From: Eledone cirrhosa
Taxonomy: Eukaryota
Assembly: GCA_964016885.1 (NCBI GenBank)
Contig: OZ024741.1
Span: 102,858,001 to 102,922,000, forward strand
DNA: 64,000 bases
Reading direction: 5' to 3'
A model generated the notes under the pieces. That model did no database searches. It had not been told where the DNA came from and saw only the letters and a list, made by a program, of their open reading frames with translations. Numbering within the stretch: position 1 is the stretch's first letter; each line of letters opens with the position of its first letter. Positions 11,183 through 54,157 of this stretch are shown one piece after another. A program made the translations under genes and the position numbers.

Positions 11183-11239
<57 letters not shown>

Positions 11240-11405
11240 GGGAAGAAGACGCACGAGGTGACGGAGGTCATGAAATCGCTCCCGTAAGTTTTGAATTTTT
11301 AACATATTTAAATCATTTGTGAAATAACAACTCTTAGTACAAATGCTACGTAAAGCACCCGGCTTGAGCCCCAAAAAAATTCGGACCCAAAATATATTGT
11401 TATAA

Positions 11406-12054
11406 GGCTCAAATATTCAAATATTCAACTTTGTATTGTACACTGTATATCAAAAAAAAAAAAAATGGCTATAAATGGAAGAAGAAGAACCCCCCCCCCC
11501 TCCTCTCCTCTGGCTACACTATATAGGACAGCTAAACTCACCAACACCAGAAACTAGATACACCACCCACCCCATCATCCCTGTACACTAAACACAACAG
11601 CATTTTCACCTTCACCGCCACCGCTCACTACGGCCATCATTACCACCACTATCCCATCACCGCCGCCACCACCCCTTGACTCCTTCACTGCTGCTGCCAC
11701 CGCTACAGCACCATCACTACAGTAATACGGCTCAAATATTCAAATATTCAACTTTGTATTGTACACTGTATATCCAAAAAAAAAAATAAAATGGCTATAA
11801 ATGGAAGAAGAAGAACCCCCCCCCCCTCCTCTCCTCTGGCTACACTATATAGGACAGCGAAACTCACCAACACCAGAAACTAGATACACCACCCACCCCA
11901 TCATCTGTGTACACTAAACACAACAGCATTTTCACCTTCACCGCCACCGCTCACTACGGCCATCATTACCACCACTATCCCATCACCGCCGCCACCACCC
12001 CCTGACTCCTTCACTGCTGCTGCCACCGCTACAGCACCATCACTACAGTAATAC
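11406..12054 (+). repeat. Tandem duplication (~325 bp x2) in the A1 leader
   Basis: 11406-11728 is nearly identical to 11729-12054. Confidence 0.95.
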
Positions 12055-12625
12055 GGTCGCATCACCGCCACCACTGCCTCGGTATCGACATCACCACCAC
12101 CACTGTCTCAGTATCGCCAACGCCGCCAGTCTCTGCTGGCTACCACTTCCACATTATAGAATTCCTACTACTAACAAAGAGGAAGGCATCAAAATATATA
12201 GATAGACTCAAAAGAAAAAAGAAAAAACAAACAACAAAAGCAGCACAGCAACAACAGTAAAAAACGAGAAAAACAGAGAAAAACAAAAACAAAAAAAGAA
12301 ACCCCAAAAACGTAAAGAAAATAAGAATGAAGAGAGAAGCAGGCGGACGGACAGAGAAGAGGGGGGAAAAAGTAAAACTTAAAAAACAAAAACTAAGTCA
12401 GACATTCGAATACTACATTACAATGAAACTTATGCTTATTCATTTTTGGGGCCCTTTCTGCCCGTGTGTTTGTTTGTTTATGTGTGTCCGTATACAGCGT
12501 GGTGATAATGCCACACAAGGGCCAAGTGGGATGGCGGATCCACAGATGGCTATGTAAACATACATTCGCCAATCCTCGATAAGAGTGTTTAAATATCGAA
12601 CATAAACAGTTCGAATAACGGTGAA

Positions 12626-16018: not shown

Positions 16019-16104
16019 GGCTGCAGGTAGTGGCTTGATATTCAATCCAACGGACTTTCCAGTTAACCAACATCAATGACTGAGATTCAAGGAATAACAA
16101 TAAC

Positions 16105-16974: not shown

Positions 16975-19900
16975 CACACTAAATATAACAGCCAGATAAC
17001 GGTAATTTCACCACCACCACCACCAATCCCAGCATCATAATAATTATTACTATTATTATTGTCTCAAGTTTTAACAAAATGTTTAATTCCAATTTTACGG
17101 GAATATGTCAACACAATATATATTAAACATACGCGACACAAACTCATAGATACTACATATCACAAAACTCAGTAACGACAACGCCACCGCCGCCACCACC
17201 TCATCCATCATTGCTACCACTATCACATCGCCGCCGCCACCACTCCTTCATTGCAACCACCACTGTTCCCCTGTTAACTTAAGAAAGGGGAAGGTGACGG
17301 TATCACTAGACAAGGGAGAGGCTAGCAAAAGATATAAATAGATTGACTTAGTGACCTGGCCACCGGCCAAACGTCAACAAACTATGGCACTGCTGGCTCC
17401 CCCCTTCCTCACCAGCAATATAAAAAGCCCCAGCACCACCACCGATATAGCCAACAACAATAACAGACAACTTCAGCAAAAAGTATATTATATTATTGTA
17501 ATGCACTGGGTGATTGCTGGCCTTGTGCCTGGAGTGGAGACGGTTATTAATAATTTCATTCGTAAGCGACGTAATGCTCACATTAAGGAACCACTCATGA
17601 TAATAACAATTTAAAAAAAAAACAACAAAAAGAAAACCCCGTGACCAAGAAATACCGGGATGGCGGCCGGCGGGGAATAGCCGTGTCTCTAGGGGAGAAC
17701 GACCCCTCTAGTCTTGGTTGACACTCGTTCTAGAAGTGGTAACACGAAATGATTACCCCTTGGCGGATAAGGATAAAACGCGACAAAATAAAGTAAATGT
17801 CTAATGATAAAATCTCATACCGGATCGGCTGTCATCCGGGTAAAAAAGGGCCGCGTCCCTCAGAGAGGAACCAGACTGGGGTCGAAAAATCAGCTAATGG
17901 TTCAAACCTTCCCATCACTTCGGAGCTGGAGACCTCCCATAACCGGAATACTCCTACTGTTGGCCCTCCATGCTCACCACCAAGAAATCCAAAGAAAAAG
18001 AGAGAAAAATGGTCAAGGGAAGATAATAAAGAAGTCCTTGAGGCTTTCTACACTGCCATGTACTACCCATCAAATACATCGAATACAGAACAGACATATA
18101 TCAACTGGAAAAAGAAACATCCCGAAAACAGAGGCTATATTGACAGTAACAAACTAGCCAATATACGAAGAAATATTGTAAGAAAAAAGTTACTAACTGA
18201 TATAGAAATTGATCAGATCAAGCTATTAGCACAAAGTCAGCGACGGGGAAATGAAACATGTGTCAGTGAAAACGAGGTAAACTGTAACACTTCGAATCCC
18301 AGGGTTGGGGCGGAATCACTGGCAACAGAACAAATTAAAGAAAGGATCGAAAAAGTGGAGCGAGTGCATGCTCAAGATGAAACTCCAAATGAAAATAATG
18401 AGATCGTAAATGATAAAGAAATGAATGAGAATGAACTTGCCAACTTGAAGGATGAAATTATGATCGAATGGATGAAAATGAAAGTATCTGACATGGGGCA
18501 ACGAGACACCCTCCCTAAGATCCAGAACTCCAAACAGAACCAAAAGATAATACACAAGACTAACATAATCTCAAAAACATTATCATCACAAACAAACTAA
18601 ACATTACTGATTTAAATCATCTCTATTATGCAACGGCTAAAGTCACCACTCACTTATGTGGAGTGAAGATGAAAAAACAAAGGAATTCCCACAAGAAATC
18701 TACTTTGAAAGAGAACAGCAATCGCCAAATAAACCTTCTCCGATTTTAACAAACTATAAAGTAGGTGAACATGTTAAACAAACTAAACTTAGAAAATTGA
18801 AAAGAAAGTACAGTATAAAATCAACAAGTGACATAGACATGCTGATAGAAATAATCAAGCAAAAAGTGTCGGCCAAAGCTGCTCGTATAAGGCGCTTTGA
18901 AAAACGATCTAGATTCTATAAGGACAATAATATGTTCAAAAACAACCAAAGAAACTTCTACAGAAAAATTGGTAAGTCAACAATAACTGCTAAATCAATA
19001 CCACCCAAGAACGAAGTACAAGAATTCTGGGCAAAGATCTGGACCGAAGAAAAAGTTCATAAAATACATGCCCCATGGATAGACAGACAAATGAAAGATA
19101 CAGCTCACCTTGAGGAACAAATATGGGAAAATATAACTGTTGAACAGTTGCGCTTGGCTCTAAGAAAAACCAGCAAATGGAAATCCCCAGGAAAAGACAA
19201 AATACAAAACTTTTGGATAAATGCCTTCACAGAGTCTCATGAGCTGTTAGCCCAACTTTACAATGAAATAGTTAAGGAGCCAGAAAAGATACCATCATGG
19301 CTAGTTAACGGCATTACATTCCTGCTTCCGAAGAATGATGAGACAAACAATCCCAAAAATTACAGACCGATAACTTGCTTGACCACAATGTATAAAATGT
19401 TAACATCAGTCCTAACTGAATACACATATGACCACCTGATAACAAATGTCCTATTTCCCATTGAGCAGAAAGGGTGTAAACGAGGCTCATATGGCTGTAA
19501 GGATCAGCTTTTGGTTAACAAAATGATACTGGAAGATTCTCATAATAGACACAAAAATCTATCAATTGCTTGGATAGATTATTAAAAAGCATTCGATAGT
19601 TTGCCACACAGTTGGATTGAAAAATGTTTAGAGATTTTCAAAATATCCCCCGTTGTCAGGAGGTTTTTGTCATTCAGTATGAAGACATGGAAAACTACAC
19701 TCCTTTTGAATAGTGAAACAAAATCACTGGAAGCTGGAGAAGTTAATATTAATTGTGGAATTTTTCAGGGTGACTCTTTATCACCGCTTTTATTCTGCAT
19801 CGCACTTATACCATTAAGTAAAATGCTCAATGAAACAAAACATGGATATAAAGTCTATGACAAAACCATTAATCACTTGTTCTACATGGATGACCTGAAA

Positions 19901-21571
19901 CTATTTGCAAAAAATGATGAACAATTGCAAGGGCTATTATCCACTGTGGAGCAGTTCAGTGATGACATTAAAATGGAGTTTGGACTAGATAAATGCGCCA
20001 AAGCAACGTTTACCAGAGGAAAGCTGCTGAAGAGTTCAGACATTAATCTTGATCGGGGGAACGTGATAAGAGAACTTGATCAAGAAAAAACTTACAAATA
20101 TCTAGGTGTTTGTGAAGGAGACGGAATCAAGCACTCGACAATGAGGGAAGGGATAAGGAAGGAATGTTACCGCAGAGTAAGCGCAATCTTAAGAACGGAA
20201 TTGAATGCAAGGAATAGGATCGATGCCATACGCTTGCCATACCAGTAGTAACCTACAGTTACAATGTCATCAACTGGTCAAGCACAGAGATCCGTAGGCT
20301 CGATACAAAAATTCGAAAATTCTTAACCATGCACAGAATGCATCACCCTAAGGCAGATACAAATAGAATATATCTCCCTAGGAAAGAAGGAGGACGGGGG
20401 TTAATCCAGTAAGACATTGCGTTGAAAACTGCAACAATTGGATTATCTACATATCTAAGCGAATCACATGATTGGATGATCAAACTCGTTTTGAAACACG
20501 AAAGCATCAAAAGATCATACTCCATTACAAAAGATGCACAAAGATACAGTAATGGACTACAAATTTCAGAAGTCCCATTTACTGCTGAAATGGAAAACAG
20601 AAAAAGCAAATCTGGTAAAAGTAACTGCAAAGAAAGAACTGCTACAGAAACTGGCTAAGAAATTGCAAGAAAAGCCTCTGTATGGAAAATACCCAGAGCG
20701 AGCTAACAATCCTGATGTTGACAAAACTTTAACCCATCAGTGGTTAGCATCCTCTGGACTGAACTCGGAGACTGAAGGACTGATTATATCAGCACAAGAT
20801 CAGTGTCTGCCAACAAAAAATTACCAAGCCAACATAATTATAAATGGATGCAGCCCATTATGCCGTGTATGCAAAAAACAACCAGAGACCATTGACCATA
20901 TAATTTCAATGTGCAGTCCTATAGCTCCAACCGAATACCTAAACAGGCATGACAGAGCTGCACAATACATACATTGGATAATGTGTAAGCATTTTGACCT
21001 GCCCCATCAAAAGAATTGGTGGGAGCATCAACCACCTCCCATACTTGAAAAAGATCACATCTCAATCTTGTGGAACTTTAGCATCCAAACAGACCGAAAA
21101 ATAGATGCAAATAGACCTGATATAATATTGAAGGACTTTAAAAAGAGGGTATGCCTGCTAATTGATATGTCTGTTCCAATAGACAAGAATGTATCTATAA
21201 AAACATTTGAAAAATTGAGCAAGAATAAGGACCTGGAGATAGAAATTGGAAAAATGTGGAAACTGAGAACTAAAACAATACCAGTGGTTGTAGGCGCTCT
21301 GGGAATGATACCTAAGGGGTCTAATGATTACTTATCGCAAATCCCAGGAAACCCGCGTACAGGAGAAATACAAAAGATAGTACTAATGGGAACTGCCCAT
21401 ATACTAAGGAAGATTCTGTCAATATAAGTACATCACAAGTCTAAACACTAAAGATGCATGTGTGAATATGTATGTTCTTTCTTGAACATGGCAGACCTTG
21501 TTGTCTCTTGAGGTCACTGGTTGTGACTTGGTGATAACTCGTATGAACATAAAGCAAGATAAATGCAACTG
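16975..21571 (+). mobile_element. Dong family B copy B1 (lacks first ~325 bp; ORF 17797-21427 disrupted)
   Basis: ORF fragments give REKWSREDN, YRPITCL, GIFQGDSLSPLLF, YMDD, CRVC..QPETIDHIISMC, RHD, NRPDII; stops and frameshifts present. Confidence 0.92.
17498..17543 (+). mobile_element. 5'-truncated SINE tail inserted in the B1 leader
   Basis: Matches 1629-1672, is absent at the homologous site in B2 (~50115), and has TTATT on both sides. Confidence 0.85.
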
Positions 21572-37152: not shown

Positions 37153-37187
<35 letters not shown>

Positions 37188-37624
37188 TTTCTTTATTAAC
37201 CACAAGGGTTCACATAAAGTAGACATTAAGGACAGTACAGGACAATACAGGACGGTACAAATGGGCATTTCTGCGTGTAAAAAAAACAGAGGTTGAAATA
37301 AAATAACAAAGAAAAATTCCCCAATAGGGGGGAGACTTCCAAGGGACATTTGTGGAGAAAGCCCATTAAAAGACCACAGTGGCCCTGACCACCAGGGCAA
37401 GTGCCCTCTCCCAGTTTTCCACCTTTAATTTACAGACACATACTCAGAGAAGGCCCATTCATTCGGGCCATACTTGCTTCTCTCACCCATCTTTCAACAA
37501 AATGCTGGGAAGAGAGCACTTCCCTCTCTACCCTGATTTTCCTTTTCAAATGAAATTTGAAAAAGTTAATCAGGGCATCAACGAAGAGGTAAGTGCTCGT
37601 CTTCAGCCCTTTCAAACGTGTCCA

Positions 37625-40600
37625 CTATACTATCTCTTTCGCCATGGCCACCAGACAGATAAAAACTGCCTGCCCTTCCCGGCTAAAGGAAGGGGGCGGG
37701 GCAATCCTCACGATGGACTCAGCTGATAGCTGGATAGGTCCTACACGTGACAGCAGGTGTTCGACATAAACCCACAAGTCAGCAATGCTCGGACACTGGA
37801 CGAGTGCGTGCAGGACGGTTTCGTCGCCCTGCGCGCATCTCGGACATGCCCGGCTGACGGCACCTCCATGCCTGTAGAGTTTATCCCGAACTGGCAAAGC
37901 TCCTCGGTAGCACTGCCAGGCCAGGGATTTCTGGAAGTTGTCCATAGGCCCCGGCCCGAAAGTCCTTCCGAAGAGATTGGCTAGTTGATTTTCGTCGACG
38001 CCTAGAGTTTCTCCAAGTACGTCGTCGCTCTTCCCCTCCACTAATCCCCTATAGAACGCCAAGGTGGAGTTTCCACCGATCACATTGCCCGGTTGGTCGA
38101 GGGCTGTGAGCGCCTGAAGACATTCCAGTCTCCAAGCCCTCCCTCTCGGTCTTCGCTTGACCCAGGACTGCAGCTCCGTCAAGGAGACGAGCTGGGGAAA
38201 AACGTGTCTTGCAAACGGCGACCACACCTGATCACCGTCGAGGAAGAGGTGGAGATGTCGTAGCCTGAGCGCGTGTCTGCGCATCATCAGCCACGGCATG
38301 CCCAGCCCTCCACGTAGCGGGTGTTGACAGCAGATGGACCGCCTGACCATCGGAGCGCGTCCCTTCCACAAGAAGCGAAAGAGAAAACGCTCCAGCGCAG
38401 TCAGGCGGGGCTTAGGACAAGGTACGACGGTCAGGCGGTAGTAGATGACGGATGCGATGTACGCATTCGCCACCTCCGCTCGACCTTTCAGGGATAGCTT
38501 CCTCTCCGCCCATTTCTGGGTGAGAGAAGCCACCCTGCTCGTCACCTCGTCCCAGTTTTTGTCCGTCTGGAGGTCTGGACCGAACCAGACCCCTAGCAAT
38601 TTAACCGGTCCGTCCGTCCAGCGCCCGACGACGCTGTTGGACGGCATGGACCTGCCTCTCCAGGTGCCGAGCTGCAGGCCCACTGACTTTTCCTGGTTGA
38701 TTATTGCTCCTGTCACCGCTTCGTATTCTCTTAGTGTAGTGCCGATCGCCTCGATGTGTTTGGCGTTCGACACCACTACGGTGACATCGTCGGCATATGC
38801 TGACACGGATCTTCCGCATCCTAGTTCGCGCGGGACACCCCTCAACGTCTCCAGTTTGTGCAGTAATGGCTCGAGAGTCAATACGTACAATAGGGACGAG
38901 AGGGGACATCCTTGGCGGACCGAGCGCATGATGTTGAACGGTTCCGAAAGGTGACCGTTCACTCTCACTACAGAGCAGATGTCGCTGTGCATGGCAGCGA
39001 TCCAGCCTCTGAAGACGGGCCCAAAGCCAGCCGCCCTCAGGACTGCCGTTAGGTAACGATGGTCGACCCTATCGAAGGCTTTCGACTGATCTAAATTGAT
39101 CAAAGACCCACCCGTGCCAGGTTCCCTAGCTACCCTCTCTACGATGTATCGCATGAGGTGGAGGTTGTCGTGGATGGATCTGTCGGGAATGGCGCATGTC
39201 TGTGCCTCTCCCACCAGACCACCAACGACAAGCGCCAACCTCTTTGCTAGCACCTTGGCCAAAATCTTGAACTCTGTGTTTAGCAGAGTTATGGGCCTAA
39301 AATTATCTATGTTATCCCCCTTGTTCGGATCCTTTCTCAGCAGCGCCACCGCTCCTCGGCTCACAGAACTGGGAATTCTCCCGTTCTGTTGCCAGTTGCA
39401 GTAGACGTCCGCCAAGAGGCCTCCGAACAAGTTTGGCATTTGTACGTAAAGTTCATAGGGCAGACCATCCAAACCAGGCGATTTACCCCTTGTGCAACTA
39501 GTCATTGCATCCCGTACTTCAGCGGTTGTTATCGGCTTTTCGCAACACTCCGCCTCAGTGGCCGAAAGCCGCGGCAGTCCGTCGAGGTAGACACTAAAGT
39601 CCATCCCTCGATCCGGCCCGCCACTGCCCCCGAACAGTTGAGCGAAGTGTCGCTGAAAAGCTTCACACATTTGCCCGGGATCGAGTAGCATGCGCCCGTC
39701 GTGGTCCACCAAAGACCGGATCGTGGCTTTGTTGCCACGACACGCCTCCGCCACTCGGGCCCATTGAACGGCTTTCGTCCCCTCGTGTCTGAGAGCACGC
39801 ACCCTAGCTCTGACAACGCAGCCTTCGTGCTTTGCATTGAAGAATTGGTCAAGGGCCAATTTCGCCGCAAGTACGTCGGTCGCGATGCCTTTGCTAAGCG
39901 CCTCATCTAATTTTCTAACTAATTCTCCCTCTGCTCTATTTTTCTCTATTGCTAAAGTCTTACTAAACCTAATGGACTCTATTCTAATTGCTCTTTTCAG
40001 AGCAAACCACCACTTGTTGTTGACGATGTCCCCCGTCAACGCCCGCTTAACTAGTTCGCTAATCCGGTCTCTGTAGGCCTTGCGCGCTGGTAAGGACGCG
40101 TTTAGCTTCCAGTAGCCGGGTCCTCGTCTATGAAGCCTATCTAAGTCAAGCACACAGATCACGAATTTGTGGTCCGTGTAGCTGACTATCTTGAATTGTG
40201 GACAGCCTATGCTAGACCTATCTATTTCCCTACAAAATACTCTATCTAGATATGATCTGGATGACCCTATGCGATTTGTCCAAGTCCACATTGGTACATT
40301 CGGGAAATCCATTCGGTACCTGTCAGACAGTTCAAAACGTCTGAGCAGGTTGGTGAGACTCTTGCACCCTCCTTCCCTATCCACTAATCCCACACAATCC
40401 CAGCGTGCATCTAAGATCCCGTTCCAGTCGCCCACTAACACTAAAGAGCGGGATGTTCCAAGAAAGGTCTCCAGACGCCGGAAGAAATCAGGTCGCCCTG
40501 CTCCTGTCGGGGCATAGACGGCCACTAACCTGAAAGCTTGCCCGTCTCCGCTGGTCACGTCCAGCACCACCAACTTACCTTCTGGGTCCAGGAAGATGGC

Positions 40601-40849
40601 CCGTATGTCAAGATCCAAACCTCTCCGAAAAAGCACAGCAACTCCTCCCCCCGATCCCGGACGGCTGGGAGATGCGTACACATCGTAGCCGCCGAAGATC
40701 GGTGCGAAAGCCTGTGCTTCGGAGATTCTGGTCTCGTTGATGGCCACTACATCTATGTTTAGTGACCTGAGGTCGTTGAGCAGGTGGCCCTGCTTCCATG
40801 ACGACCCCAAGCCACGCGCATTTATGCTGCCTATTCTGAGTGAGGTCAT
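37625..40849 (-). CDS. ORF2 APE-RT of b2 (1074 aa; premature TGG>TAG removes the last ~65 aa)
   Basis: Same motifs as a2 ORF2; the frame continues past the stop to 37430. Confidence 0.85.
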   Translation of the reverse strand: MTSLRIGSINARGLGSSWKQGHLLNDLRSLNIDVVAINETRISEAQAFAPIFGGYDVYASPSRPGSGGGVAVLFRRGLDLDIRAIFLDPEGKLVVLDVTSGDGQAFRLVAVYAPTGAGRPDFFRRLETFLGTSRSLVLVGDWNGILDARWDCVGLVDREGGCKSLTNLLRRFELSDRYRMDFPNVPMWTWTNRIGSSRSYLDRVFCREIDRSSIGCPQFKIVSYTDHKFVICVLDLDRLHRRGPGYWKLNASLPARKAYRDRISELVKRALTGDIVNNKWWFALKRAIRIESIRFSKTLAIEKNRAEGELVRKLDEALSKGIATDVLAAKLALDQFFNAKHEGCVVRARVRALRHEGTKAVQWARVAEACRGNKATIRSLVDHDGRMLLDPGQMCEAFQRHFAQLFGGSGGPDRGMDFSVYLDGLPRLSATEAECCEKPITTAEVRDAMTSCTRGKSPGLDGLPYELYVQMPNLFGGLLADVYCNWQQNGRIPSSVSRGAVALLRKDPNKGDNIDNFRPITLLNTEFKILAKVLAKRLALVVGGLVGEAQTCAIPDRSIHDNLHLMRYIVERVAREPGTGGSLINLDQSKAFDRVDHRYLTAVLRAAGFGPVFRGWIAAMHSDICSVVRVNGHLSEPFNIMRSVRQGCPLSSLLYVLTLEPLLHKLETLRGVPRELGCGRSVSAYADDVTVVVSNAKHIEAIGTTLREYEAVTGAIINQEKSVGLQLGTWRGRSMPSNSVVGRWTDGPVKLLGVWFGPDLQTDKNWDEVTSRVASLTQKWAERKLSLKGRAEVANAYIASVIYYRLTVVPCPKPRLTALERFLFRFLWKGRAPMVRRSICCQHPLRGGLGMPWLMMRRHALRLRHLHLFLDGDQVWSPFARHVFPQLVSLTELQSWVKRRPRGRAWRLECLQALTALDQPGNVIGGNSTLAFYRGLVEGKSDDVLGETLGVDENQLANLFGRTFGPGPMDNFQKSLAWQCYRGALPVRDKLYRHGGAVSRACPRCAQGDETVLHALVQCPSIADLWVYVEHLLSRVGPIQLSAESIVRIAPPPSFSREGQAVFICLVAMAKEIV

Positions 40850-40883
40850 GTTGAAAAGGAGTGGAAAAGATGGGAAAGACCAC

Positions 40884-42870
40884 TTACCTTACTTCTCGTA
40901 GGGGAAGGACGGCTTTTCCATCCTTTTCACTGCTTGTGGCCTCCTCAGGAAGGATGTCCTTATAAATCCTCCTGGAGAGTGCTTGTCGGAAGTCTCCGAT
41001 GTCTTTGGGGAATTTTTGTTTTAGTGTCATGTACGTTTTCTGTGTGATGCGAGTGATTTGTATGTGTGGGGGTGGTGTGAATTTTGGGGTTGTTGTGTAG
41101 TCTTTTTCTGTGAGGCTGGTGTTGTGTTGGATGTAGTGTAATAATTGCTTGTTGTTCAAATTTAATGCTGTGTAGTGTGTATCGTTTTGGTTGTTTTGTT
41201 TTGTTTGCGTTTGTTGTGGGTTTGTTTCTGTTTCGAATTTTGGTGTCTTTTGTGGTGTAGGTGATGGTGGTGTTGGAGTTAATGATGGTGATGGTGTTGG
41301 TGTTTGGGTTGATGGGGTTGGTGATGCTGGTGTGGATGGTGGCATATCTGTCCTAACTTTTTTGTTTCTTAGTTTATTTGTTTCCCTCTGTATTTTGTTT
41401 TTGGAGGGGGAAGGAAGAGAATTTTTTCTTTTTTGGTTTCTTTTTTTTTTTCCGGATATCGTTTCCCACTCCTCGTCGTCACAATCTGTCTCCAGTTGTG
41501 ATAGGCCGGGGAGTGGAAAATCCTCCACAGCCATTAGTTTTGGTTGTGATGTGATGGATGGTGTAGGCGCTGGTGCTAGTTCTGAAGCGTTGGGTGGTGG
41601 TGGTGTTGGTTTTGCTGGTGGTGGTAGTGGTGTTGGTTTTGCTACTGTTGCTGGGGTTGTTGCTGTTATAGTTGCTTCTGTTGTTGCTGCTACAGTTGTT
41701 GCTGGCATCTCTGCTACTGGTGGTGTTGATGGTTGTGTCACTGGGGTGGGTAGGAGAGGTGGCCTCAACCTTTTAGTCTGAGGGCAGAAAGCCCTTAGGT
41801 GGGTTCCTTCACCACAAACGACACACCTAGGTCTTCTGCCCTCGACAATTACCGTGAGGTGGCTGCCGTCAGTGAGGTCTATTACCTCTGGGATCTCCTC
41901 AATGCTTTTTTGGTCCGCTTGGATCAGGAGCTCCATCCCAGATCCGGACCAGTTTTCCTGCTTTTCTTTTGCTATTGTTATTATTTTCGTGTTGGCCTCG
42001 ATGCCGGCGAGGACAGCCGCTATTAGCCAGGGAATTTCGATGGCCGGTGGAACGTGGGTCACCCTGATCTTTACGAGTCTCTGGCCACAATAGCTTGGGA
42101 CGAGTGTGAAGTCGTCACTTTTTAATGGGGCCATGGAGTGTTCTCTAGCCTCCTCTGGTGTTTCAAAGAACACATCCACGGTTCCATACTTTTGCCCACG
42201 TCTGATGTGGGTTTTTCTTGCCCACACATGTCCCAAAGCTTTTTGGATTTGGGACTCGGATGCCCGTTCCACTCGGCGCGATTTTACATTTATTGTTCTA
42301 TACGACACGGTGCACAGGCGCCGATGCTCCATTTTATTAGGTGGGGGGTTGAGGCTGACCCTGTACCCATCTTTCTTTACCATTTGTTTGGCATTTTCTA
42401 AATCTTCTTGAGTTACCGTGAACGCTTCGAATTGTTTTGCTACGATGGCGAAACTGAGGGTCGGTTTTATAATGTCATTGTTGTTGTTGTTGCTATCGTT
42501 AATATTAATTTTATTTTCAGTTGTGGTGGTGGTGACGTCAGTCGTCTTTGGTGGTGAAGAGTCCATTTTGCTTGATTTCATTTCGACGTCACGAGTTAAT
42601 TTATTTTTTTCTTCTTTTGTTTCTGTTGTCGCGGTGGTGGTGGTGGTGGTGGTTGTCGCGGTGGTGGTGGTGGTGGAGGGTTTAACACCTGCAGTCATTG
42701 GTAATGGCGGGAAATGAATGTCTGCTTGAGACAAATTTAAAATATTGCTACTGCTTATATTTTTTTTTTGTGTTGGCAAACGTAGTAACATTTACAATGG
42801 TGGTGTCGGTGTGAGGTGTTATTTTGTGAGGAAGTCTTTCAGCTGTTTCGTGCAGAGGGGAATTAGCCAT
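40884..42870 (-). pseudogene. ORF1 type b of b2 (one +1 frameshift, probably in the homopolymer at ~42760-42769)
   Basis: ATG at 42870 matches the b1 start; a 635-codon open frame 40884-42791 carries the CCHC knuckle. The frameshift may be a sequencing error. Confidence 0.75.
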
Positions 42871-43079
42871 TTTTTTTCAAAGAAATTTTTGGATAATAAT
42901 AAAAGTTAAAATTTTGGGCACAAGGCCCCAATCTTTTTGGGTGTCCTTTTCGTAAAACAATGTATGTGTGCTTATAAACAGTTTACAATAAAATTTTCCA
43001 TAAATGGCAATTTTTAAACAAACGGAAATAACAAACCTTTGCGGAGCTCACGATAATACGATTTCCTACGTAGGTCGCC

Positions 43080-43112
<33 letters not shown>

Positions 43113-43114
<2 letters not shown>

Positions 43115-46100
43115 TTTCTTTATTAACCACAAGGGTTTACATAAAGTAGACATTAAGGACAGTGCAGGACAATGCAGGACGGTACAAATGGGCATTTCTG
43201 CGTGTAAAAAACAAAAACAGAGGATGTAACAAAAATAACAATGAAAATAACAATGAAAAATTCCCCAATAGGGGGGAGACTTCGGAGGGACATTTGTGGT
43301 GAAAGCCCAGTAAAAAACCACAATGACCCTGACCACCAAGGCAAGTGCCCTCTCCCAGTTTTCCACCTTAAATTTACAGATATATACTCAGAGTAGGCCC
43401 ATTCACTCGGGCCATTCTTGCTTCTCTCACCCATCTTTCAACAAAATGCTGGGAAGAGAGCACTTCCCTCTCTACTCTAATTTTCCTTTTCAAATGAAAT
43501 TTGAAAAAGTCAATCAGAGCATCACCGAAGAGGTAAGTGCTCGTCTTCAGCCCTTTCAAACGTGTCCACCATACTATCTCTTTCACCATGGCCACCAGGC
43601 AGATAAAAACTGCCTGCCCTTCCCGGCTAAAGGAGGAGGGCGGGGCAATCCTCACGATGGACTCAGATGATAGCCGGATCCGTCCTAAACGCGACAGCAG
43701 GTGTTCGATATAAACCCACAAGTCAGCAATTTTCGGACATTGGACGAGTGCGTGCAGGACGGTTTCGTCGCCCTGCGCGCATCTCGGACATGCCCGGCTG
43801 ACGGCACCTCCATGCCTGTAGAGTTTATCCCGAACTGGCAAGGCTCCTCGGTAGCACTGCCAGGCCAGAGATTTCTGGAAGTTGTCCATAGGCCCTGGCC
43901 CGAAAGTTCTTCCGAAGAGATTGGCTAGTTGATTTTCGTCGACGCCTAGAGTTTCCCCAAGTACGTCATCGCTCTTCCCCTCCACTAATCCTCTATAGAA
44001 CGCCGAGGTGGAGTTTCCACCGATCACATTGCCCCCATTGGTCGAGGGCTGTGAGCGCCTGAAGACATTCCAGTCTCCAGGCGCTCCCTCTCGGTCTTCG
44101 CTTGACCCAGGACTGCAGCTCCGTCAAGGAAACGAGCTGGGGAAACACGCGCCTAGCAAACGGCGACCACACCTGATCACCGTCGAGGAAGAGGTGGAGA
44201 TGTCGTAGTCTGAGCGCGTGCCTGCGCATCATCAGCCACGGCATGCCCATCCCTCCACGTAGCGGGTGTTGACAACAGATGGACCGCCTGACCATCGGAG
44301 CACGTCCCTTCCAAAAAAAGCGAAAGAGCAAACGCTCCAGCGCAGTCAGGTGAGGCTTAGGACAAGGTACGACGGTTAGGCGGTAGCAGATGACAGACGC
44401 GATGTACGCGTTAGCCACCTTCGCTCGACCTTTCAGGGATAGCTTCCTCTCCGCCCATTTCTGGGTGAGAGAAGCCACCCTGCTCGTCACCTCGTCCCAG
44501 TTTTTGTCCGTCTGGAGGTCCGGACCGAACCAGACCCCTAGCAATTTACCGATCCGTCCGTCCAGCGCCCGACGACGCTGTTGGACGGCATGGACCTGCC
44601 TCTCCAGGTGCCGAGCTGCAGGCCCACTGACTTTTCCTGGTTGATCATTGCTCCTGTCACCGCTTCGTATTCTCTTAGTGTAGTGCCGATCGCCTCGATG
44701 TGTTTGGCGTTCGACACCACTACGGTGACATCGTCCGCATATGCTGACACGGATCTTCCGCATCCTAGTTCGCGCGGGACTCCCCTCAACGTCTCCAGTT
44801 TGTGCAGTAATGGCTCGAGAGTCAATACGTACAAGAGGGACGAGAGGGGACATCCTTGGCGGACCGAGCGCATGATGTTGAACGGTTCCGACAGGTGACC
44901 GTTCACTCTCACCACAGAGCAGATGTCGCTGTGCATGGCAGCGATCCAGCCTCTGAAGACGGGCCCAAAGCCAGCCGCCCTCAGGACTGCCGCTAGGTAA
45001 CGATGCTCGACCCTATCGAAAGCTTTCGACTGATCTAAATTGATCAAGGACCCACCCGTGCCAGGTTCCCTAGCTACCCTCTCTACGATGTATCGCATGA
45101 GGTGGAGGTTGTCGTGGATGGATCTGTCGGGAATGGTGCATGTCTGCGCCTCTCCCACCAGACCACCAACGACAAGCGCCAACCTCTTTGCTAGCACCTT
45201 GGCCAAAATCTTAAACTCTGTGTTTAGCAGAGTTATGGGCCGGAAATTTTCTATGTTATCCCCCTTGTTCGGATCCTTTCTCAGCAGTGCCACCGCTCCT
45301 CGGCTCACAGAACTGGGAATTCTCCCGTTCTGTTGCCAGTTGCAGTAGACGTCCGCCAAGAGGCCTCCGAACAAGTCTGGCATCTGTACGTAAAGTTCAT
45401 AGGGCAGACCATCCAAACCAGGCGATTTACCCCTTGTGCAGCCAGTCATTGCCTCCCTTACTTCAGCGGCTGTTATCGGCTTTTCGCAACACTTCGCCTC
45501 AGTGGCCGAGAGCCGCGGCAGTCCGTCGAGGTAGACACTAAAGTCCATCCCTCTACCCGGCCCCCCGCTGCCCCCGAACAGCTGAGCGAAGTGTCGCTGA
45601 AAAGCTTCACACATTTGCCCGGGATCGAGTAGCATGCGCCCGTCGTGGTCCACCAAAGACCGGATCGTGGCTTTGTTGCCACGACGCGCCTCCGCCACTC
45701 GGGCCCATTGAACGGCTTTCGTCCCCTCGTGTCTGAGAGCACGCACCCTAGCTCTGACAACGCAGCCTTCGTGCTTTGCATTGAAGAATTGGTCAAGGGC
45801 CAATTTCGCCGCCAGCACGTCGGTCGCAATGCCTTTGCTAAGCGCCTCGTCTAATTTTCTAACTAGTTCTCCCTCTGCTCTATTTTTCTCTATTGCTAAA
45901 GCCTTACTAAACCTAATCGATTCTATTCTAATCGCTCTTTTCAGAGCAAACCACCACTTGTTGTTGACGATGGCCCCCGTCAACGCCCGCTTAACTAGTT
46001 CGCTAATCCGGTCTCTGTAGGCCTTGCGCGCTGGTAAGGACGCGTTTAGCTTCCAGTAGCCGGGTCCTCGTCTATGAAGCCTATCTAAGTCAAGCACACA

Positions 46101-49100
46101 GATCACGAATTTGTGGTCCGTGTAGCTGACTATCTTGAATTGTGGACAGCCTATGCTAGACCTATCTATTTCCCTACAAAATACTCTATCTAGATATGAT
46201 CTGGATGACCCTATGCGGTTTGTCCAAGTCCACATTGGCACATTCGGGAAATCCAATCGGTACCTGTCAGACATTTGAAAACGCCTGAGCAGGTTGGTGA
46301 GGCTCTTGCACCCTCCACCCCTATCCGCTAATCCCACACAGTCCCAGCGTGCATCTAAGATCCCGTTCCAGTCGCCCACTAACACTAAAGAGCGGGACGT
46401 TCCAAGAAAGGTCTCCAGACGCCGGAAGAAATCAGGCCGCCCTGCTCCTGTCGGGGCATAGACGGCCACTAGCCTGAAAGCTTGCCCGTCTCCGCTGGTC
46501 ACGTCCAGCACCACCAGCTTACCCTCTGGGTCCAGGAAGATGGCCCGTATGGCGAGATCCAAACCTCTCCGAAAAAGCACAGCAACTCCTCCACCGGATC
46601 CAGGACGGCTGGGAGATGCGTACACATCGTAGCCGCCGAAGATCGGTGCGAAGGCCCGTGCTTAGGAGATTCTGGTCTCGCTGATGGCCACTACATCTAT
46701 GTTTAGTGACCTGAGGTCGTTGAGCAGGTAACCCTGCTTCCATGACGACCCCAAGCCACGCGCATTTATGCTGCCTATTCTGAGTGAGGTCATGGTTAAA
46801 ATAGAGTGGAAAAGATGGGAAAGACCACTTACCGTACTTTTGGTAGAGGAGGGATGGTTTTTACATCCCTTTTCACTTGATCGTCTGGTGAAGGGACCGT
46901 TGAATCGTCCCTTCGGCTGGTCGTCGGCTCTTCTAAGAGAATGTCTGAGTATACTCTTCGATTGATGGTTCCTCCTAGGTCCCTGAAATCACCAACTGCG
47001 TTGGGGAATTTCGTTTTAATGTTTGTGTATTGTTTCTGTGCTATTTTTAGCAGTCTTATGTTAGTTGGCGTTTTGATTGGTGCTGGTATTATGTAGTCCT
47101 GTTGTGAAATGTCTGTGTGTTCAATTATGTAAGTCATTAGTTTCTTGTTGTGTGTATTTATTGCCGTGCATTTGTTTTTCTGGGGATGGGGTGTGGTTCT
47201 ACTATTTTCTTGTCGTTGTTGCTGGGTGTGTGTGTTTTGTTGTTGTGTTTGCGATGTTGGTGCTTGTGGTGGTGGTGTTGAAGGTGTTGTTGGCGGTGGG
47301 GTTGTCGCCGGTGGTGATGGTGGCGCTAGTGTGGGTGGTGATGGTGTTGGTGTTGTTGCTGCTGTGGGTCTCTTTGCAGTAGACTTTACCCTTTTCTCAT
47401 TTCTTTCCTCCCTTTTCAAAGGCGACGATGCGCTGCTTCTGCGTTTGTGCCTTCTTGCGACCTTTTGCCATCCCTCTCCCACCTCACACTCCATGTCTGA
47501 TTCTGTAAGGTCGGGGAGGGGTACCAGCTCCACTCTTTCACTTGTTGTTGTTGGTGATGTTTGCACTGGAGTCTCTGTTGCAGCTGCATTTGGTATTGCT
47601 GTTGTTGTTGTTAATATTTCCACTGCTGCTGCTGTCTTTGATTTCCGTGGAGTGGGTATGGGTGCCACGGACCTATCGTTCCTGGTTGCCGCTTGTCCTG
47701 TTGCTGGTAGCCGTGGAGCCGGATTCGGAAGGAGGGGGGTTTTCTCCTTTCTCAGGGTCTTCTCGTTGCAGAAGGCCCTGAGGTGAGTCTTCGATCCACA
47801 GCGAAAGCATTTCGGGCGTTTGCCCTCAACACTTATGGGCAGTTGAGTGCCGTTATCGAAGTCTATCACATCCGGGATAGCTTCGATGCACTCCTGGTTG
47901 GTTTGGATTAGCATCTCAATGGAGGAGCCGACCCAATCTTCTCTTACTTTTTTCTGTACTTGCAGTACAGTTGTTTTGTCCTCGATTCCGACGAGGACAG
48001 ACGCGGCCAGCCAAGAAGGGGTCATTCCGGGGGCGACGTGGGTCAGTTTGACCCTCACAATTTTTTGCCCGCAGTAGGAGGGCACCAACACCATTTCCTC
48101 GCTCCTTAGGGTCACTACTGATTGGGCCTTTGCCTCCTGGGGTGTGGCAAAAAGTACGTCTACGGTGGCGTATTTTTTGCCTCGGGTGATGTGCGTTTTC
48201 CTCTGCCACACAGACCCCAAGGCTTTTTGTATTTGGGCCTCTGTGGCTCTTTCCACCCTACGGGATTTTGTACTTACTGTACGGTACGTGACCGTACAGT
48301 GCTCTTGGGTTTCGAAAACATTTTTCGCTGCCTTGCAGATTGCTCGGTGTCCGTTCTTTGTCACCATCTTCTTCGCTTCCTCTAATTCCTCATTTGTTAT
48401 GAGGATTGTTTCCAAGTTTTTCGCAATACCTGCAAATGAGATTGGTTTTTCTCTGCTGTTGTTGTTGTCGTCAGAGCTGCTGGTACTTTTGTTGCTGCAG
48501 GTACTACGACTACTGCCTCCGCCGCTGTTGCTGTGGTTGTTGTTGGTGTTGCTGCTGCTAATGCTGTTGTTGTTTATGCTGCTGGTGATGCTGTTGCGGC
48601 TGCTACTGTTGTTTTCATTGTCACTGTTGCTGTTGTTATTACGGCTGCTACTGCTATTATTCCTGACGTCAGACGAATGAACTGGGTTTTCGTATTTCCC
48701 GCACACCTGTTTCGTCGCTGTCGTCGTCGTCGTGGAGAAACCTTGCACGCTTTGCACGAGACTTTTCTTTTCTTTCGTCGCTTGCGAAATAGAAGGGAGG
48801 GAGAGAGACACATTTAAAGAAGGGAGGGAGAGAGACAATCTTCTCTCTGCTGTAGTGATGATTGAGGAAGAAGAAGACGGAATGAGTGGGAGTGACGTAT
48901 GAAATTTCTTTTTGGTAGCCATGTTTTTTTTGTTTAAAATGAAATTTTGGGTACAAAACCCCAATAACTGGTTATTTAACCCCGAAGGGCCAAATAACGG
49001 GCAGAAAGACCCCTCTCACGAGGAGGAGGGTGTCTTTATCAACAATTAGGTTCAAGTTTTAAACAAATTACAATTGTTTTAAAGGTTAAAAATTACTATA

Positions 49101-49136
49101 CCTTACAGAGCCGAGCCTCCGTCAACCATGGCATTC
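43113..49136 (-). mobile_element. Tx1-like element type a, full-length copy a3 (ORF2 disrupted)
   Basis: Near-identical to a2; ORF2 has an early stop (~46663) and frameshifts near 44550 and 44035. Confidence 0.93.
46829..48922 (-). CDS. ORF1 type a of a3 (697 aa, intact)
   Basis: Near-identical to a2 ORF1. Confidence 0.88.
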   Translation of the reverse strand: MATKKKFHTSLPLIPSSSSSIITTAERRLSLSLPSLNVSLSLPSISQATKEKKSLVQSVQGFSTTTTTATKQVCGKYENPVHSSDVRNNSSSSRNNNSNSDNENNSSSRNSITSSINNNSISSSNTNNNHSNSGGGSSRSTCSNKSTSSSDDNNNSREKPISFAGIAKNLETILITNEELEEAKKMVTKNGHRAICKAAKNVFETQEHCTVTYRTVSTKSRRVERATEAQIQKALGSVWQRKTHITRGKKYATVDVLFATPQEAKAQSVVTLRSEEMVLVPSYCGQKIVRVKLTHVAPGMTPSWLAASVLVGIEDKTTVLQVQKKVREDWVGSSIEMLIQTNQECIEAIPDVIDFDNGTQLPISVEGKRPKCFRCGSKTHLRAFCNEKTLRKEKTPLLPNPAPRLPATGQAATRNDRSVAPIPTPRKSKTAAAVEILTTTTAIPNAAATETPVQTSPTTTSERVELVPLPDLTESDMECEVGEGWQKVARRHKRRSSASSPLKREERNEKRVKSTAKRPTAATTPTPSPPTLAPPSPPATTPPPTTPSTPPPQAPTSQTQQQNTHTQQQRQENSRTTPHPQKNKCTAINTHNKKLMTYIIEHTDISQQDYIIPAPIKTPTNIRLLKIAQKQYTNIKTKFPNAVGDFRDLGGTINRRVYSDILLEEPTTSRRDDSTVPSPDDQVKRDVKTIPPLPKVR

Positions 49137-49228
<92 letters not shown>

Positions 49229-52200
49229 GGAAGGGAAGCAGACGCACGTGGTGGATAGAAGGTCATGAAATCGCTCCCGTAAGTTTTTGATTTTTAACAT
49301 ATTTAAATAACAATTCTTAGTACAAATGATACATAAAGCACCAGACTCAAGTCTCAAAGTAATTCGGATCTATAATATATTGTTATATCGCTCAAATATT
49401 CAATTTTGTATTATACATTTTATATTCAAAAAAGAAAATGGTTATAAATGGAAGAAAACACCCTCTGTCAACACTATATAGAACAGCCAAATAACAGCAA
49501 TTTCACCAACACCAGAAACTAGATACACCACCTACCCCATCACCCCTCTGTGTACACTAAATACAACAGCCAGATAACGGCAATTTCACCACCTCCACCA
49601 CCACCAATCCCAGCATAATAATAATAATTACTATTATTATTGTCTCAAGTTTTAACAAAATTTTTAATTCCAATATTAAAAGAATATGTCAAAACATATA
49701 TTAAACATACGCGACAAACGCATAGATACACAGATGAAACAAAACTACAGTCTATTCAACAAAACTCAGTAACGAGAACGCCATCACTATAGTCACCGCC
49801 GCCACCACTCCATCCATCATTGCTACCACTATCCTATCACCGCTGCCACCACTCCTTCATTGCTACCACCACTATTCCCCCATTACCTTCTGTTAACTTA
49901 AGAAAGGGGAAGGTGGCGGTATCACTAGACAAGGGAGAGGCTAGCAAATGATATAACGAGATTGACTTAGTGACCCGGCCACCGGCCAAACGTCGACGAC
50001 TATCGCACTGCTGGCTCCCCCCTTCCCCACCAACAATAGAAAAAGCCCCAGCACCACCACCGACATAGCCAACAACAATAACAGGCAACTTGAGCAAAAA
50101 GTATATTATATTATTAATAATTTCATTCTTAAGCCACGCAATGCTCACATTAAGGAACCACTCATGATAATAACAATTTAAAAAACAACAAAAAAGAAAA
50201 CCCCGTGACCAAGAAATACCGGGAAGGCGGCCGGCGGGGAATAGCCGTGTCTCTAGGGGCGGACGACCCCTCTAGTCTTGGTTGACACTCGTCCTAGAAG
50301 TGGTAAAACGAAATGATTACCCCTTGGCGGATAAGGATAAAAAGCGACAAAATAAAGTAAATGTCTAATGATAAAATCTCATACCGGATCGGCCGTCACC
50401 CGGGTCAAAAAGGGCCGCGTCCCTCAGAGAGGAACCAGAATGGGGTCGAAAAATCAGCTAATGGTTCAAACCTTCCCATCAATTCGGAGCTGGAGACATC
50501 CCATAACCGGAATACTCCTACTGTTGGCCCTCCATGCTCACCACCAAGAAATCCAAAGAAAAAGAGAGAAAAATGGTCAAGGGAAGATAATAAAGAAGTC
50601 CTTGAGGCTTTCTACACTGCCATGTACTACCCATCAAATACATCGAATACAGAACAGACATATATCAACTGGAAAAAGAAACATCCCGAAAACAGAGGCT
50701 ATATTGACAGTAACAAACTAGCCAATATACGAAGAAATAGTGTAAGAAAAAAGTTACTAACTGATATAAAAATTGATCAGATCAAGCTATTAGCACAAAG
50801 TCAGCGAAGGGAAAATGAAACATGTGTCAGTGAAAACGAGGTAAATTGTAACACTTCGAATCCCAGGGTTGGGGTGGATTCACTGACAACAGAACAAATT
50901 AAAGAAAGGATCGAAAAAGTGGAGGGAGTGCATGCTCAAGATGAAACTCCAAATGAAAACAATGAGATCGTAAATGATAAAGAAATGAATGAGAATGAAC
51001 TTACCAACTTGAAGGGTGAAATTATGATCGAATGGATGAAAATGAAAGAATCTGACATGGGGGAACGAGACACCCTCCCTAAGATCCAGAACTCCAAACA
51101 GAACTCCAAACAGAACCAAAAGATAATACACAAGACTAACATAATTCTCAAAAACATTATCATCGCAAACAAACTAAACATTACTGATTTAAATCATCTC
51201 TATTATGCATCGGCTAAAGTCACCACTCACTTATGTGGAGTGAAAATTAAAAGACAAAGGAATTCCCACAAGAAATCTACTTGGCAAGAGAACATCAATC
51301 GCCAAATAAACCTTCTCCGATCTGACATAGAAATTTTAACAAACTATAAAGTAGGTGAACATGTTAAACAAACTAAACTTAGAAAATTGAAAAGAAAGTA
51401 CAGTATAAAATCAACAAGTGACATAGACATGCTGATAGAAATAATCAAGCAAAAAGTGTCGGCCAAAGCTGCTCGTATAAGGCGCTTTGAAAAACGATCT
51501 AGATTCTATAAGGACAATAATATGTTCAAAAACAACCAAAGAAACTTCTACAGAAAAATTGGTAAGTCAACAATAACTGCTAAATCAATACCACCCAAGA
51601 ACGAAGTGCAAGAATTCTGGGAAAAGATCTGGGCCGAAGAAAAAGTTCATAATATACATGCCCCATGGATAGACAGACAAATGAAAGATACAGCTCACCT
51701 TGAGGAACAAATATGGGAAAATGTAACAGTTGAAACAGTTAACATTTGGCTCTAAGAAAAGCCAGCAAATGGAAATCCCCAGGAAAAGACAAAATACAAA
51801 ATTTTTTGATAAATACCTTCACAGAGTCTCATGAGCTGTTAGCCCAACTTTACAATGAAATAATTAAGGAGCCAGAAAAGATACCATCATGGCTAGTTAA
51901 CGGCATTACATTCCTGCTTCCGAAGAATGATGAGACAAACAATCCCAAAAATTACAGACCGATAACTTGCTTGACCACAATGTATAAAATTTTAACATCA
52001 GTCCTAACTGAATATACATATGACCACCTGATAACAAATGACCTATTTCCCATTGAGCAGAAAGGGTGTAAACGAGGCTCATATGGCTATAAGGATCAGC
52101 TTTTGGTTAACAAAATGATACTGGAAGATTGTTATAATAGACACAAAAATCTATCAATTGCTTGGATAGATTATTAAAAAGCATTCGATAGTTTGCCACA

Positions 52201-54157
52201 CAGTTGGATTGAAAAATGTTTAGAGATTTTCAAAATATCCCCCGTTGTCAGGAGGATTTTGTCATTCAGTATGAAGACATGGAAAACGACACTCCTTTTG
52301 AATAGTGAAACAAAATCACTGGAAGCTGGAGAAGTTAATATTAATTGTGGAATTTTTCAGGGTGACTCTTTATCACCGCTTTTATTCTGCATCGCACTTA
52401 TACCATTAAGTAAAATGCTCAATGAAACAAAACATGGATGTAAAGTCTATGACAAAACCATTAATCACTTGTTCTACATGGATGACCTGAAACTATTTGC
52501 AGAAAATGATGAACAATTGCAAGGGCTATTATCCACTGTGGAGCAGTTCAGTGATGACATTAAAATGGAGTTTGGACTAGATAAATGCGCCAAAGCAACG
52601 TTTACCAGAGGAAAGCTGCTGAAGAGTTCAGACATTAATCTTGATCGGGGGAATGTGATCAAGAGGAAAGTTACAAATATCTAGGTGTTTGTGAAGGAGA
52701 CGGAATCAAGCACTCGACAATGAGGGAAAGGATAAGGAAGGAATGTTACCGCAGAGTAAGCGCAATCATAAGAACGGAATTGAATGCAAGGAATAGGATC
52801 GATGCCATAAACACGCTTGCCATACCAGTAGTAACCTACAGTTACAATGTCATCAACTGGTCAAGCACAGAGATCCGTAGGCTCGATACAAAAATTTGAA
52901 AATTCTTAACCATGCACAGAATGCATCACCCTAAGGCAGATACAAATAGAATATATCTCCCTAGGAAAGAAGGAGGACGGGGGTTAATCCAGTAAGACAT
53001 TGCGTTGAAAACTGCAACAATTGGATTATCTACATATCTAAGCGAATCACATGATTGGATGATCAAACTCGTTTTGAAACACGAAAGCATCAAAAGATCA
53101 TACTCCATTACAAAAGATGCACAAAGATACAGTAATGGACTACAAATTTCAGAAGTCCCATTTACTGCTGAAATGGAAACACAGAAAAAGCAAAGCAGGT
53201 AAAAGTAACTGCAAAGAAAGAACTGCTACAGAAACTGGATAAGAAATTGCAAGAAAAGCCTCTGTATGGAAAATACCCAGAACGAGCTAACAATCCTGAT
53301 GTTGACAAAACTTTAACCCATCAGTGGTTGGCATCCTCTGGACTGAAATCGGAGACTGAAGGACTGATTATATCTGCACAAGATCAGTGTCTGCCAACAA
53401 AAAATTACCAAGCCAACATAATAAAAAATGGATGCAGCCCATTATGCCGTGTATGGAAAAAATAACCAGAGACCATTGACCATACAATTTCAATGTCCAG
53501 TCCTATAGCTCCAACCGAATACCTAAACAGGCATGACAGAGCTGCACAATACATACATTGGATAATGTGTAAGCATTTTGACCTGCTCCATCAAAAGAAT
53601 TGGTGGGAGCATCAACCACCTCCCATACTTGAAAAAGATCACATCTCAATCTTGTGGAACTTTAGCATCCAAACAGACCGAAAAATAGATGCAAATAGAC
53701 CTGATATAATACTGAAGGACTTTAAAAAGAGGGTATGCCTGCTAATTGATATCTCTGTTCCAATAGACAAGAATGTATCTATAAAAACATTTGATAAATT
53801 GAGCAAGTATAAGGACCTGGAGATAGAAATTGGAAAAATGTGGAAATTGAGAACTAGAACAATACCAGTGGTTGTAGGCGCTCTGGGAATGATACCTAAG
53901 GGGTCTAATGATTACTTATCACAAATCCCAGGAAAACCCGCGTATAGGAGAAATACAAAAGATAGTACTAATGGGAACTGCCCATATACTAAGGAAGATT
54001 CTGTCAATATAAGTACATCACAAGTCTAAACACCTAAAGATGCATGTGTGAGTATGTATATTCTTTCTTGAACATGGCGGACCTTGTTGTCTCTTGAGGT
54101 CACTGGTTGTGACTTGGAGATAACTCGTATGAACATAAAGCAAGATAAATGCAGCTG
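49229..54157 (+). mobile_element. Dong family B full-length copy B2 (ORF from 50361 disrupted)
   Basis: Highly similar to B1, with a complete 5' leader; AAT on both sides. Confidence 0.92.

Follow-up and report, generated by a model that had tools for sequence, protein, structure and literature searches.

The window analyzed here, by which we mean the whole 64-kb stretch of Eledone cirrhosa DNA, contains a cluster of non-LTR retrotransposons inside (AAT)n runs, with the elements A1, B1, and B2 on the plus strand and families C and D on the minus strand. A1 (11240-16104, +) and B2 (49229-54157, +) are Dong-like elements, each flanked by AAT runs at both ends. The core and 3' end of A1 (12593..16104, +) hold an intact frame of 1141 codons with a reverse transcriptase (RT), a CCHC motif, and a restriction-like endonuclease motif, and those of B2 (50361..54157, +) hold a broken single ORF with RT and a restriction-like endonuclease motif; B1 (16976..21571, +) is a B copy that is 5'-truncated within its leader, at the equivalent of 49554. 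An (AAT)30 target run (49137..49228, +) separates B2 from a head-to-head L1/Tx1-type element of family C (43113..49136, -), which has an ORF1 with a zinc knuckle and an ORF2 with APE and RT domains. The 5' UTR of C (~48920-49136, -) is colinear with the leader of the Dong-like elements, and the L1/Tx1-type element of family D (37186..43079, -) has a 5' UTR of the same layout (42860-43079). Copies of A, B, C, and D lie nested end to end in (AAT)n runs as an array of ~48 kb (11184-59748), and tandem copies of the B leader with a spacing of 4.9 kb were also seen elsewhere in the genome (G000:C2:353616434-353641345). A short interspersed repeat occurs at 1544-1642 and 10702-10801 in copies that are 93% identical; it resembles an octopus tRNA-derived SINE.

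The labels Dong-like (A and B) and L1/Tx1-type (C, D, and their kin) are provisional; the 120 homologues listed include no named Dong or R4 element, and the RT tree holds unnamed relatives alone. A and B match Pfam RVT_1 only, without Exo_endo_phos, i.e., they have an RT but no APE domain, and the closest solved relatives of the A core are R2 proteins (E = 4e-30); ORF2 of C and D has both APE and RT and is closest to human L1 ORF2p. Both Dong-like cores combine a single ORF, an RT, and the absence of APE with C-terminal motifs that we take to be a CCHC and a PD..D restriction-like endonuclease, the combination by which Dong/R4 elements are recognized. The two cores are about 40% identical at the amino acid level (35-41% for B copies), with translated blocks at 33-62% and N-terminal halves at 24%, and the RT tree places A and B in separate subclades, each with relatives from other organisms; A has relatives at 66-69% identity, compared with about 40% to B. 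The first-pass annotation, which had described ORFs aligning only at the protein level and differing in base composition, was right on both counts: the cores gave no BLASTN alignment (word size 7, E<=0.01), and their GC contents are 46% in A and 37% in B.

Upstream of these cores, A1 and B2 carry a leader that aligns at the DNA level, with A1 11238-11601 matching B2 49231-49570 at 72% by BLASTN (E = 2e-60); counted in a separate alignment, 282 of 322 aligned positions match, with 56 gap positions. The strings that had been quoted as identical are indeed so (a 28-mer at 11265 and 49260 and a 30-mer at 11538 and 49503, repeated at 11864), and the similarity resumes, as had been noted, at 83% between A1 11612-11677 and B2 49793-49857. 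The leader had been drawn to 49875, but homology among leader types reaches about 49980. The A-rich tracts that had been placed between leader and core are likewise present (12208-12395 and 50179-50200, 63% and 82% A), but each ORF region is set apart from the shared leader by 100-200 nt that are specific to the family. In B2, the first part of the leader (49231..49440, +) is L1/Tx1-like 5' UTR sequence of type b, with a G-rich start, the motif TCGCTCCCGTAAGT (49271-49284, +), a T-rich tract, a decayed hairpin, and an A-tract with an ATG (49438-49440, +). The remaining part, common to the leader types (49438..49980, +), contains a dead ORF of 18 aa and low-complexity sequence of the Thr/Pro/His type, with an internal AAT/ATT run near 49616-49640 (+) and a block in common with type c that ends at about 49980 (+); a B-specific spacer (49981..50200, +) then runs to the end of the A-rich tract. 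The corresponding L1/Tx1-like part of A1 (11240..11467, +) is of type a1, with the motif at 11276-11289 and the ATG at 11465-11467; the A1 leader further contains a tandem duplication of 326 bp (11402..12056, +) and a remnant of an older type c leader (12057..12209, +), and the A-rich tract and an A-specific 5' segment (12208..12592, +) precede the ORF. The 326-bp unit, which includes the leader ATG, is present in one to three tandem copies among young A elements (L032 and L046 also show it), and such units recall the monomer arrays of mouse L1 promoters.

The leader is found throughout the genome as a 5' module and is fixed on two Dong/R4-like families with a deep split between them. Across the 3.0-Gb genome, exact matches to a 25-mer common to both leaders number 1,393 (control, 0). 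Among the first 60 leader copies by position on contig 1, 59 continue into the core of an A or a B element and none into other sequence, the sole stub (L112) ending after about 99 nt; the leader is thus consistently attached to cores, against the contrary outcome that the first-pass annotation had named as damaging to its reading. A triplet run (AAT, GAA, or ATT, pooled) lies immediately upstream in 58 of the 60 copies, which fits (TAA)n insertion. Approached from the cores, the picture is the same: in the first 30 of 1,259 A-core matches, 20 reach back to the leader start and the other 10 are cut off inside the leader-core unit, and in the first 30 of 818 B-core matches, all 30 extend upstream into the leader-core unit, 29 of them into the shared part. 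Type c loci lead into an A core in 28 of 30 cases and type d loci into a B core in 27 of 30, and no L1/Tx1 ORF1 was found behind the leader in the 60 positional copies or in the 30 type c and 30 type d loci. A solo leader with its own 3' tail was not found in these three sets either; leaders stop early in 1/60 (L112), 2/30 (type c loci L247 and L259), and 3/30 (type d loci L404, L411, and L417), at differing points. In contigs of another organism, the leader start and the A core were met on separate pieces, with none bridging the two.

The leader has a history apart from that of the cores, in agreement with the earlier proposal that it was acquired independently of the ORFs. The leader tree, built from 59 positional copies (L112 left out) and the two window copies, resolves types a and b, both of which occur on both cores; the 59 copies comprise 41 a-on-A, 5 b-on-A, 11 b-on-B, and 2 a-on-B pairs. 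The best 30 loci to the B2 leader have 18 B cores (counting the window's own) and 12 A cores, and the best 30 to the A1 leader all have A cores. A copy with a B core (L092) and one with an A core (L108) are 99.6% identical across the 5' UTR, and leaders are altogether 83-99.6% alike across cores that cannot be aligned as DNA, so that leader divergence does not match ORF divergence, the outcome that the first-pass annotation had specified as counting against it. Four to five leader types exist, the older ones being c on A and d on B. In subsets of 2-15 copies per class, types a and b differ by 15-17% and type c differs from the others by 31-34%, compared with 4.7-8.3% for A cores; within A, leader divergence reaches 33.6% against a core divergence of 8.3%, and the leader there evolves faster than the core. 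Type a and type b leaders are 16% apart while their cores are 6% apart, which, as regards the source of type a, counts against the account favored below. Conservation among leader types is highest at nt 1-20 (16/20) and 41-60 (18/20) and drops to 5-7 of 20-21 at nt 121-180. In the core trees, types b and c sit on older A copies, a2 is intermediate, and a1 is the youngest (1.0% mean difference), and the a2-on-B copies are nested inside B.

Two amplified chimeric junctions record exchange of the leader between A and B in both directions. In the B-to-A chimera, a b leader runs to B2 position 704 (49932) and is followed by type c leader from about position 175-181 and then by an A core; the junction has 176 matches with up to one mismatch, and all 10 that were inspected show b leader, type c remnant, and A core in this order. 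The direction is read as B to A because b is uninterrupted in B and c is whole on A. In the A-to-B chimera (a2-on-B), a leader with A-specific sequence joins B near position 398 (49626), with five matches on four contigs, all with B cores, plus the variants L113, L278, and L279; L278 and L279 were considered as a second A-to-B event, but they have derived letters in common with L092 and L113, and a deletion variant is more likely. Read by eye, the junctions have microhomologies of 3-4 nt (CAA and AATT), and no AAT run is present at either. The B-to-A junction also shows a short local duplication of acceptor sequence, which is typical of polymerase slippage. A block common to types b and c extends to B2 position 750 (84% over 37 nt, E = 7e-7), and both types thus come from one composite leader; the first capture is older than the swaps. 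The earlier claim of a recent acquisition therefore has to be given up for the leader as such: only the swaps are recent, leader types being 15-34% apart and older types residing on older copies of both families. The A1/B2 leader pair is the outcome of several stacked exchanges. Internal deletions and A/B core mosaics were also observed (L063, L004, L060, L115, and L149); in L004, a B 5' part switches to A core position 3120.

As to where the leader came from, its first 230 nt run colinear to L1/Tx1-type 5' UTRs, namely those of the elements that live in the same (AAT)n sites. The common layout consists of a G start, (TC)GCTCC(C/T)GTAAGT near +35 to +50, a T-rich tract, a hairpin, an A-tract, and ATGG at +205 to +240. 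In a dinucleotide-shuffle test, A1 versus C gave a z of 5.8, compared with 3.1 for C versus D and 6.1 for C versus E. Against a null of 290 GC-matched flank windows (145, both strands), the A1 leader scored above all 290 for C, D, G, and H; after removal of the motif, A1 versus C scored 36 (null maximum, 18), and type c scored 57 versus F and 44 versus D (null maximum, 22.5; 290 windows). Leader pairs with E and K scored at null level, and B2 was weaker. The profile score was 7.9 bits for the A1 leader (E = 0.02) and below null for B2; with a motif-free profile, type c reached 7.5 bits, A1 fell under two null windows, and B2 was outside the top ten. Families I, J, K, and L were found via the motif search, so that their motif match is there by construction; 14 of the 18 loci fetched in that search have L1-type ORFs downstream. 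The leader ATG opens just 6-44 codons in all 55 copies (of 60) in which it was located, and the ATG at the same layout position opens ORF1 in L1/Tx1 families; a dead leader ORF at the ORF1 position would point to a transfer from L1/Tx1 to Dong. On these comparisons, which lend it moderate support, the leader likely derives from an L1/Tx1-type 5' UTR together with the start of ORF1. Full-length copies share one start position, the one observation that speaks for an internal promoter with its start at +1, and we infer that the leader is a putative internal promoter or transcription start signal of A and B.

An L1/Tx1 donor element with the leader was not found in searches by positional copies, motif, type c, and type d. 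The leader start after (ATT)n, which is the L1/Tx1 context, was met at four loci, all with A or B cores; a looser motif search returned further L1/Tx1 families and a single older leader attached to an A core, with no donor; and leader nt 1-230 were not followed by ORF1 or an APE-RT ORF2, the downstream sequence being a Dong-like core or nothing, and the rest of the leader showed no likeness to ORF1 either. The 5' UTR tree aligned too poorly to name a sister family. An antisense match of the ORF1 C terminus to the B leader (E = 0.005) was rejected, as it disappeared when DNA and protein profiles were applied. The same microsatellite harbors at least eight families of L1/Tx1 type, whose divergent 5' UTRs follow a single layout and which are inserted in the orientation opposite to that of Dong (besides the window, at L153, L156, L194, L195, L229, L232, L233, and L235), and most of these 5' UTRs have a splice-donor-like GTAAGT near +40. 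One further locus, L240 (G000:C1:90564217-90564282, -), has the motif behind an ATT run and lacks an element ORF for 7 kb around; it may be a decayed element or host sequence.

Behind the leader, B retains a native Dong-like 5' end (50201..50297, +), which is 74% identical to the 5' UTR of one outgroup element (E = 2e-11) and has a predicted double-pseudoknot fold with one stem mismatched. The outgroup consists of 80 metagenome relatives, of which 38 were examined upstream of the ORF; a leader match is absent from these 38 regions (best E = 0.007, 21 nt), and several outgroup elements start 150-280 nt before the ATG, directly after an AAT run, at the native fold. A common hairpin with an 8-nt loop is present at 11 outgroup loci (two further matches are chance-like), and stems P1, T1, and T2 are complete in 8 of the 11; two loci are cut short, one pairs differently, and L310 differs in its letters. 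Pairing holds in 99% of the cells of the fold alignment, and 2 hairpin pairs show double changes; the controls lean in favor of the fold because the structure was derived from the same sequences. In the eight B copies parsed, P1 and T2 pair and the hairpin is full in seven, but T1 is mismatched in all eight. None of 30 B copies starts at the native fold, and among 323 mapped starts, from loci that are leader-biased and not fully de-duplicated, none lies at A1 1240-1400 or B2 940-1150. The A-core pattern overlaps the presumed native A end and is blind to copies starting exactly there; an equivalent native 5' end in A is only suggestive. An Rfam scan of two own and 17 outgroup loci returned no ribozyme, only microsatellite noise, and an HDV descriptor, used without a positive control, found nothing in own or outgroup loci. 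The fold loci are L310:233-290, L318:53-125, L312, L313, L314, L316, L320, L322, L323, L324, and L342, together with window positions 50201-50250; they show a conserved predicted double-pseudoknot directly after (AAT)n that has no Rfam match and is a candidate self-cleaving RNA. The native fold may be a ribozyme that would be inactive in B.

R2, R4, and Dong elements are thought to depend on read-through transcription and a 5' ribozyme, and the transcription of site-specific non-LTR elements is poorly known. The account that we favor, and regard as reasonably probable, is that the leader was exchanged between A and B, likely originated from an L1/Tx1 5' UTR and ORF1 start, likely acts as a promoter, and likely moved by RT template switching. 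One family would have taken its 5' end from an L1/Tx1 element that shared its (AAT)n runs, and early on the leader would have reached the other family, in one direction or the other, giving type c on A and types d and b on B. In such an event, the Dong RT would have gone on to copy L1/Tx1 RNA as it reached or left its own RNA, and the resulting copy, with an internal promoter, would have been freed from read-through and self-cleavage. With transcription starting in the leader, the native fold for 5' processing may then no longer have been needed, and in B one of the stems of that fold would have decayed. Subsequently, the leader of B would have been placed in front of an A element of type c that was truncated at its 5' end, type a, a sister leader, would have taken over in A, and type a would have passed to B; these later jumps between A and B RNAs would have piled new 5' ends onto old ones, each new end afterwards being copied with the core as one unit. 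In its fuller form, this account would have two ribozyme-type, promoterless Dong lineages capture an L1/Tx1 promoter, lose their 5' self-processing RNA, and now share a fast-evolving promoter pool by reciprocal template switching, with the abandoned fold being a self-cleaving double-pseudoknot RNA that is so far undescribed and common among marine elements of the Dong-like kind; we put this forward tentatively, as possible rather than probable.

The exchanges could have taken place as described with a leader that came instead from a host gene 5' end or a Dong lineage, its likeness to L1/Tx1 reflecting convergence on a host promoter and splice-donor grammar. The missing donor and the weak profile scores speak for such an origin, as does the fact that all compared sequences are AT-rich with runs, so that a shared host promoter grammar could mimic the likeness; L240 has the motif with no element ORF nearby, and coexisting L1 families of nonmammalian vertebrates have similar 5' termini that the available text of PMC5381506 ascribes to host constraint. 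However, the likeness survives removal of the motif and is colinear over ~230 nt, including the hairpin remnant, the A-tract, and the position of the ATG, whereas L240 falls to null level without the motif, and a dead ORF at the ORF1 position would not be expected from convergence, which we consider unlikely. Nor do we think it at all probable that a module of the same origin was exchanged at the DNA level, by insertion beside or into an element and deletion or gene conversion in A/B arrays, followed by read-through transcription. Head-to-tail copies of A and B do share (AAT)n arrays, so that a deletion between them would yield the same stacked structure, the leader itself has an AAT run, and short microhomologies also fit end joining; against this stand the acceptor duplication at the B-to-A junction, if read as slippage, and the absence of an AAT run at both junctions. 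DNA recombination has also been discounted for mouse L1 mosaics (PMC3600994, in the part available).

Two further explanations are refuted by the data. Were the leader an independent short repeat inserting in the same (AAT)n targets and preceding Dong copies by chance, the few leaders that stop early (L112, L247, L259, L404, L411, and L417) would be understandable, but 59/60 copies enter the core without an intervening target run, the junctions do not vary from locus to locus, and each of the 30 A and 30 B cores sampled has the leader or a 5' truncation of the leader-core unit; these attachment counts leave the idea with next to no credence. It is just as hard to believe that the leader is the ancestral 5' UTR of A and B, held by purifying selection since their split. 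The first 60 nt are the best conserved among leader types, as selection might produce, but outgroups, some of them closer to A than B is, have short leader-free 5' UTRs, the 99.6% identity spans unalignable cores, the leader evolves faster than the core within A, and the chimeric junctions refute this explanation. Capture from an L1/Tx1 5' end followed by exchange through template switching remains the reading that we prefer.

The closest parallel to that reading is the replacement of 5' UTRs in mammalian LINE-1, for example, the 11 replacements described in mouse L1 (PMC3600994; see also the accessible part of PMC5381506), for which strand switching is the favored model of 5' mosaics (PMC3600994, available text). 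As in LINE-1, leader and RT trees disagree, new 5' ends mark successive subfamilies, and co-active families exchange them. In the mouse cases, as far as the text of PMC3600994 at hand goes, donor and acceptor are both L1 families or the source is unknown; here, in contrast, the acceptors, which share about 40% identity, are elements with a restriction-like endonuclease, another clade is the likely source, and exchange went both ways, with new 5' ends piled in front of old ones. Bombyx mori Dong and Ascaris R4, both of the R4 clade, self-cleave at their 5' ends through an HDV-like ribozyme (PMC3774820, excerpted text). A and B resemble them in the single ORF, the RT with C-terminal endonuclease motifs, and the TAA-repeat target. 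Unlike these elements, the copies studied here have their starts some 1 kb farther upstream than the native end, and the fold at that end matches no Rfam family and misfits the HDV descriptor (which had no positive control). Dong-R4 and L1-Tx1 families are listed as recently active in octopuses, where, as here, they coexist and are both young (PMC13282606, PMC9115989, and PMC8967140, as represented in the available portions); those portions do not describe Dong 5' ends, and the strings "chimer" and "UTR" are absent from PMC13282606 and PMC8967140. In the literature available in part, we found no description of Dong or R4 elements that carry an L1/Tx1-type 5' end, and Repbase or Dfam entries may note such ends. 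The phenomenon is therefore a cross-clade variant of known L1 5' UTR replacement, ordinary in kind and unusual in reach.

Host silencing has been proposed as the driver of 5' turnover in mammalian L1. With an L1-type 5' end on Dong-like elements, the old end still visible, and dated junctions in both directions, two questions become testable in one genome: whether promoter capture lies behind the burst that left hundreds of near-identical A copies, and whether host silencing drives 5' turnover here too, as proposed for mammalian L1. Repeat libraries may mislabel such 5' ends. The analysis also brings to notice a conserved RNA fold that is absent from Rfam.
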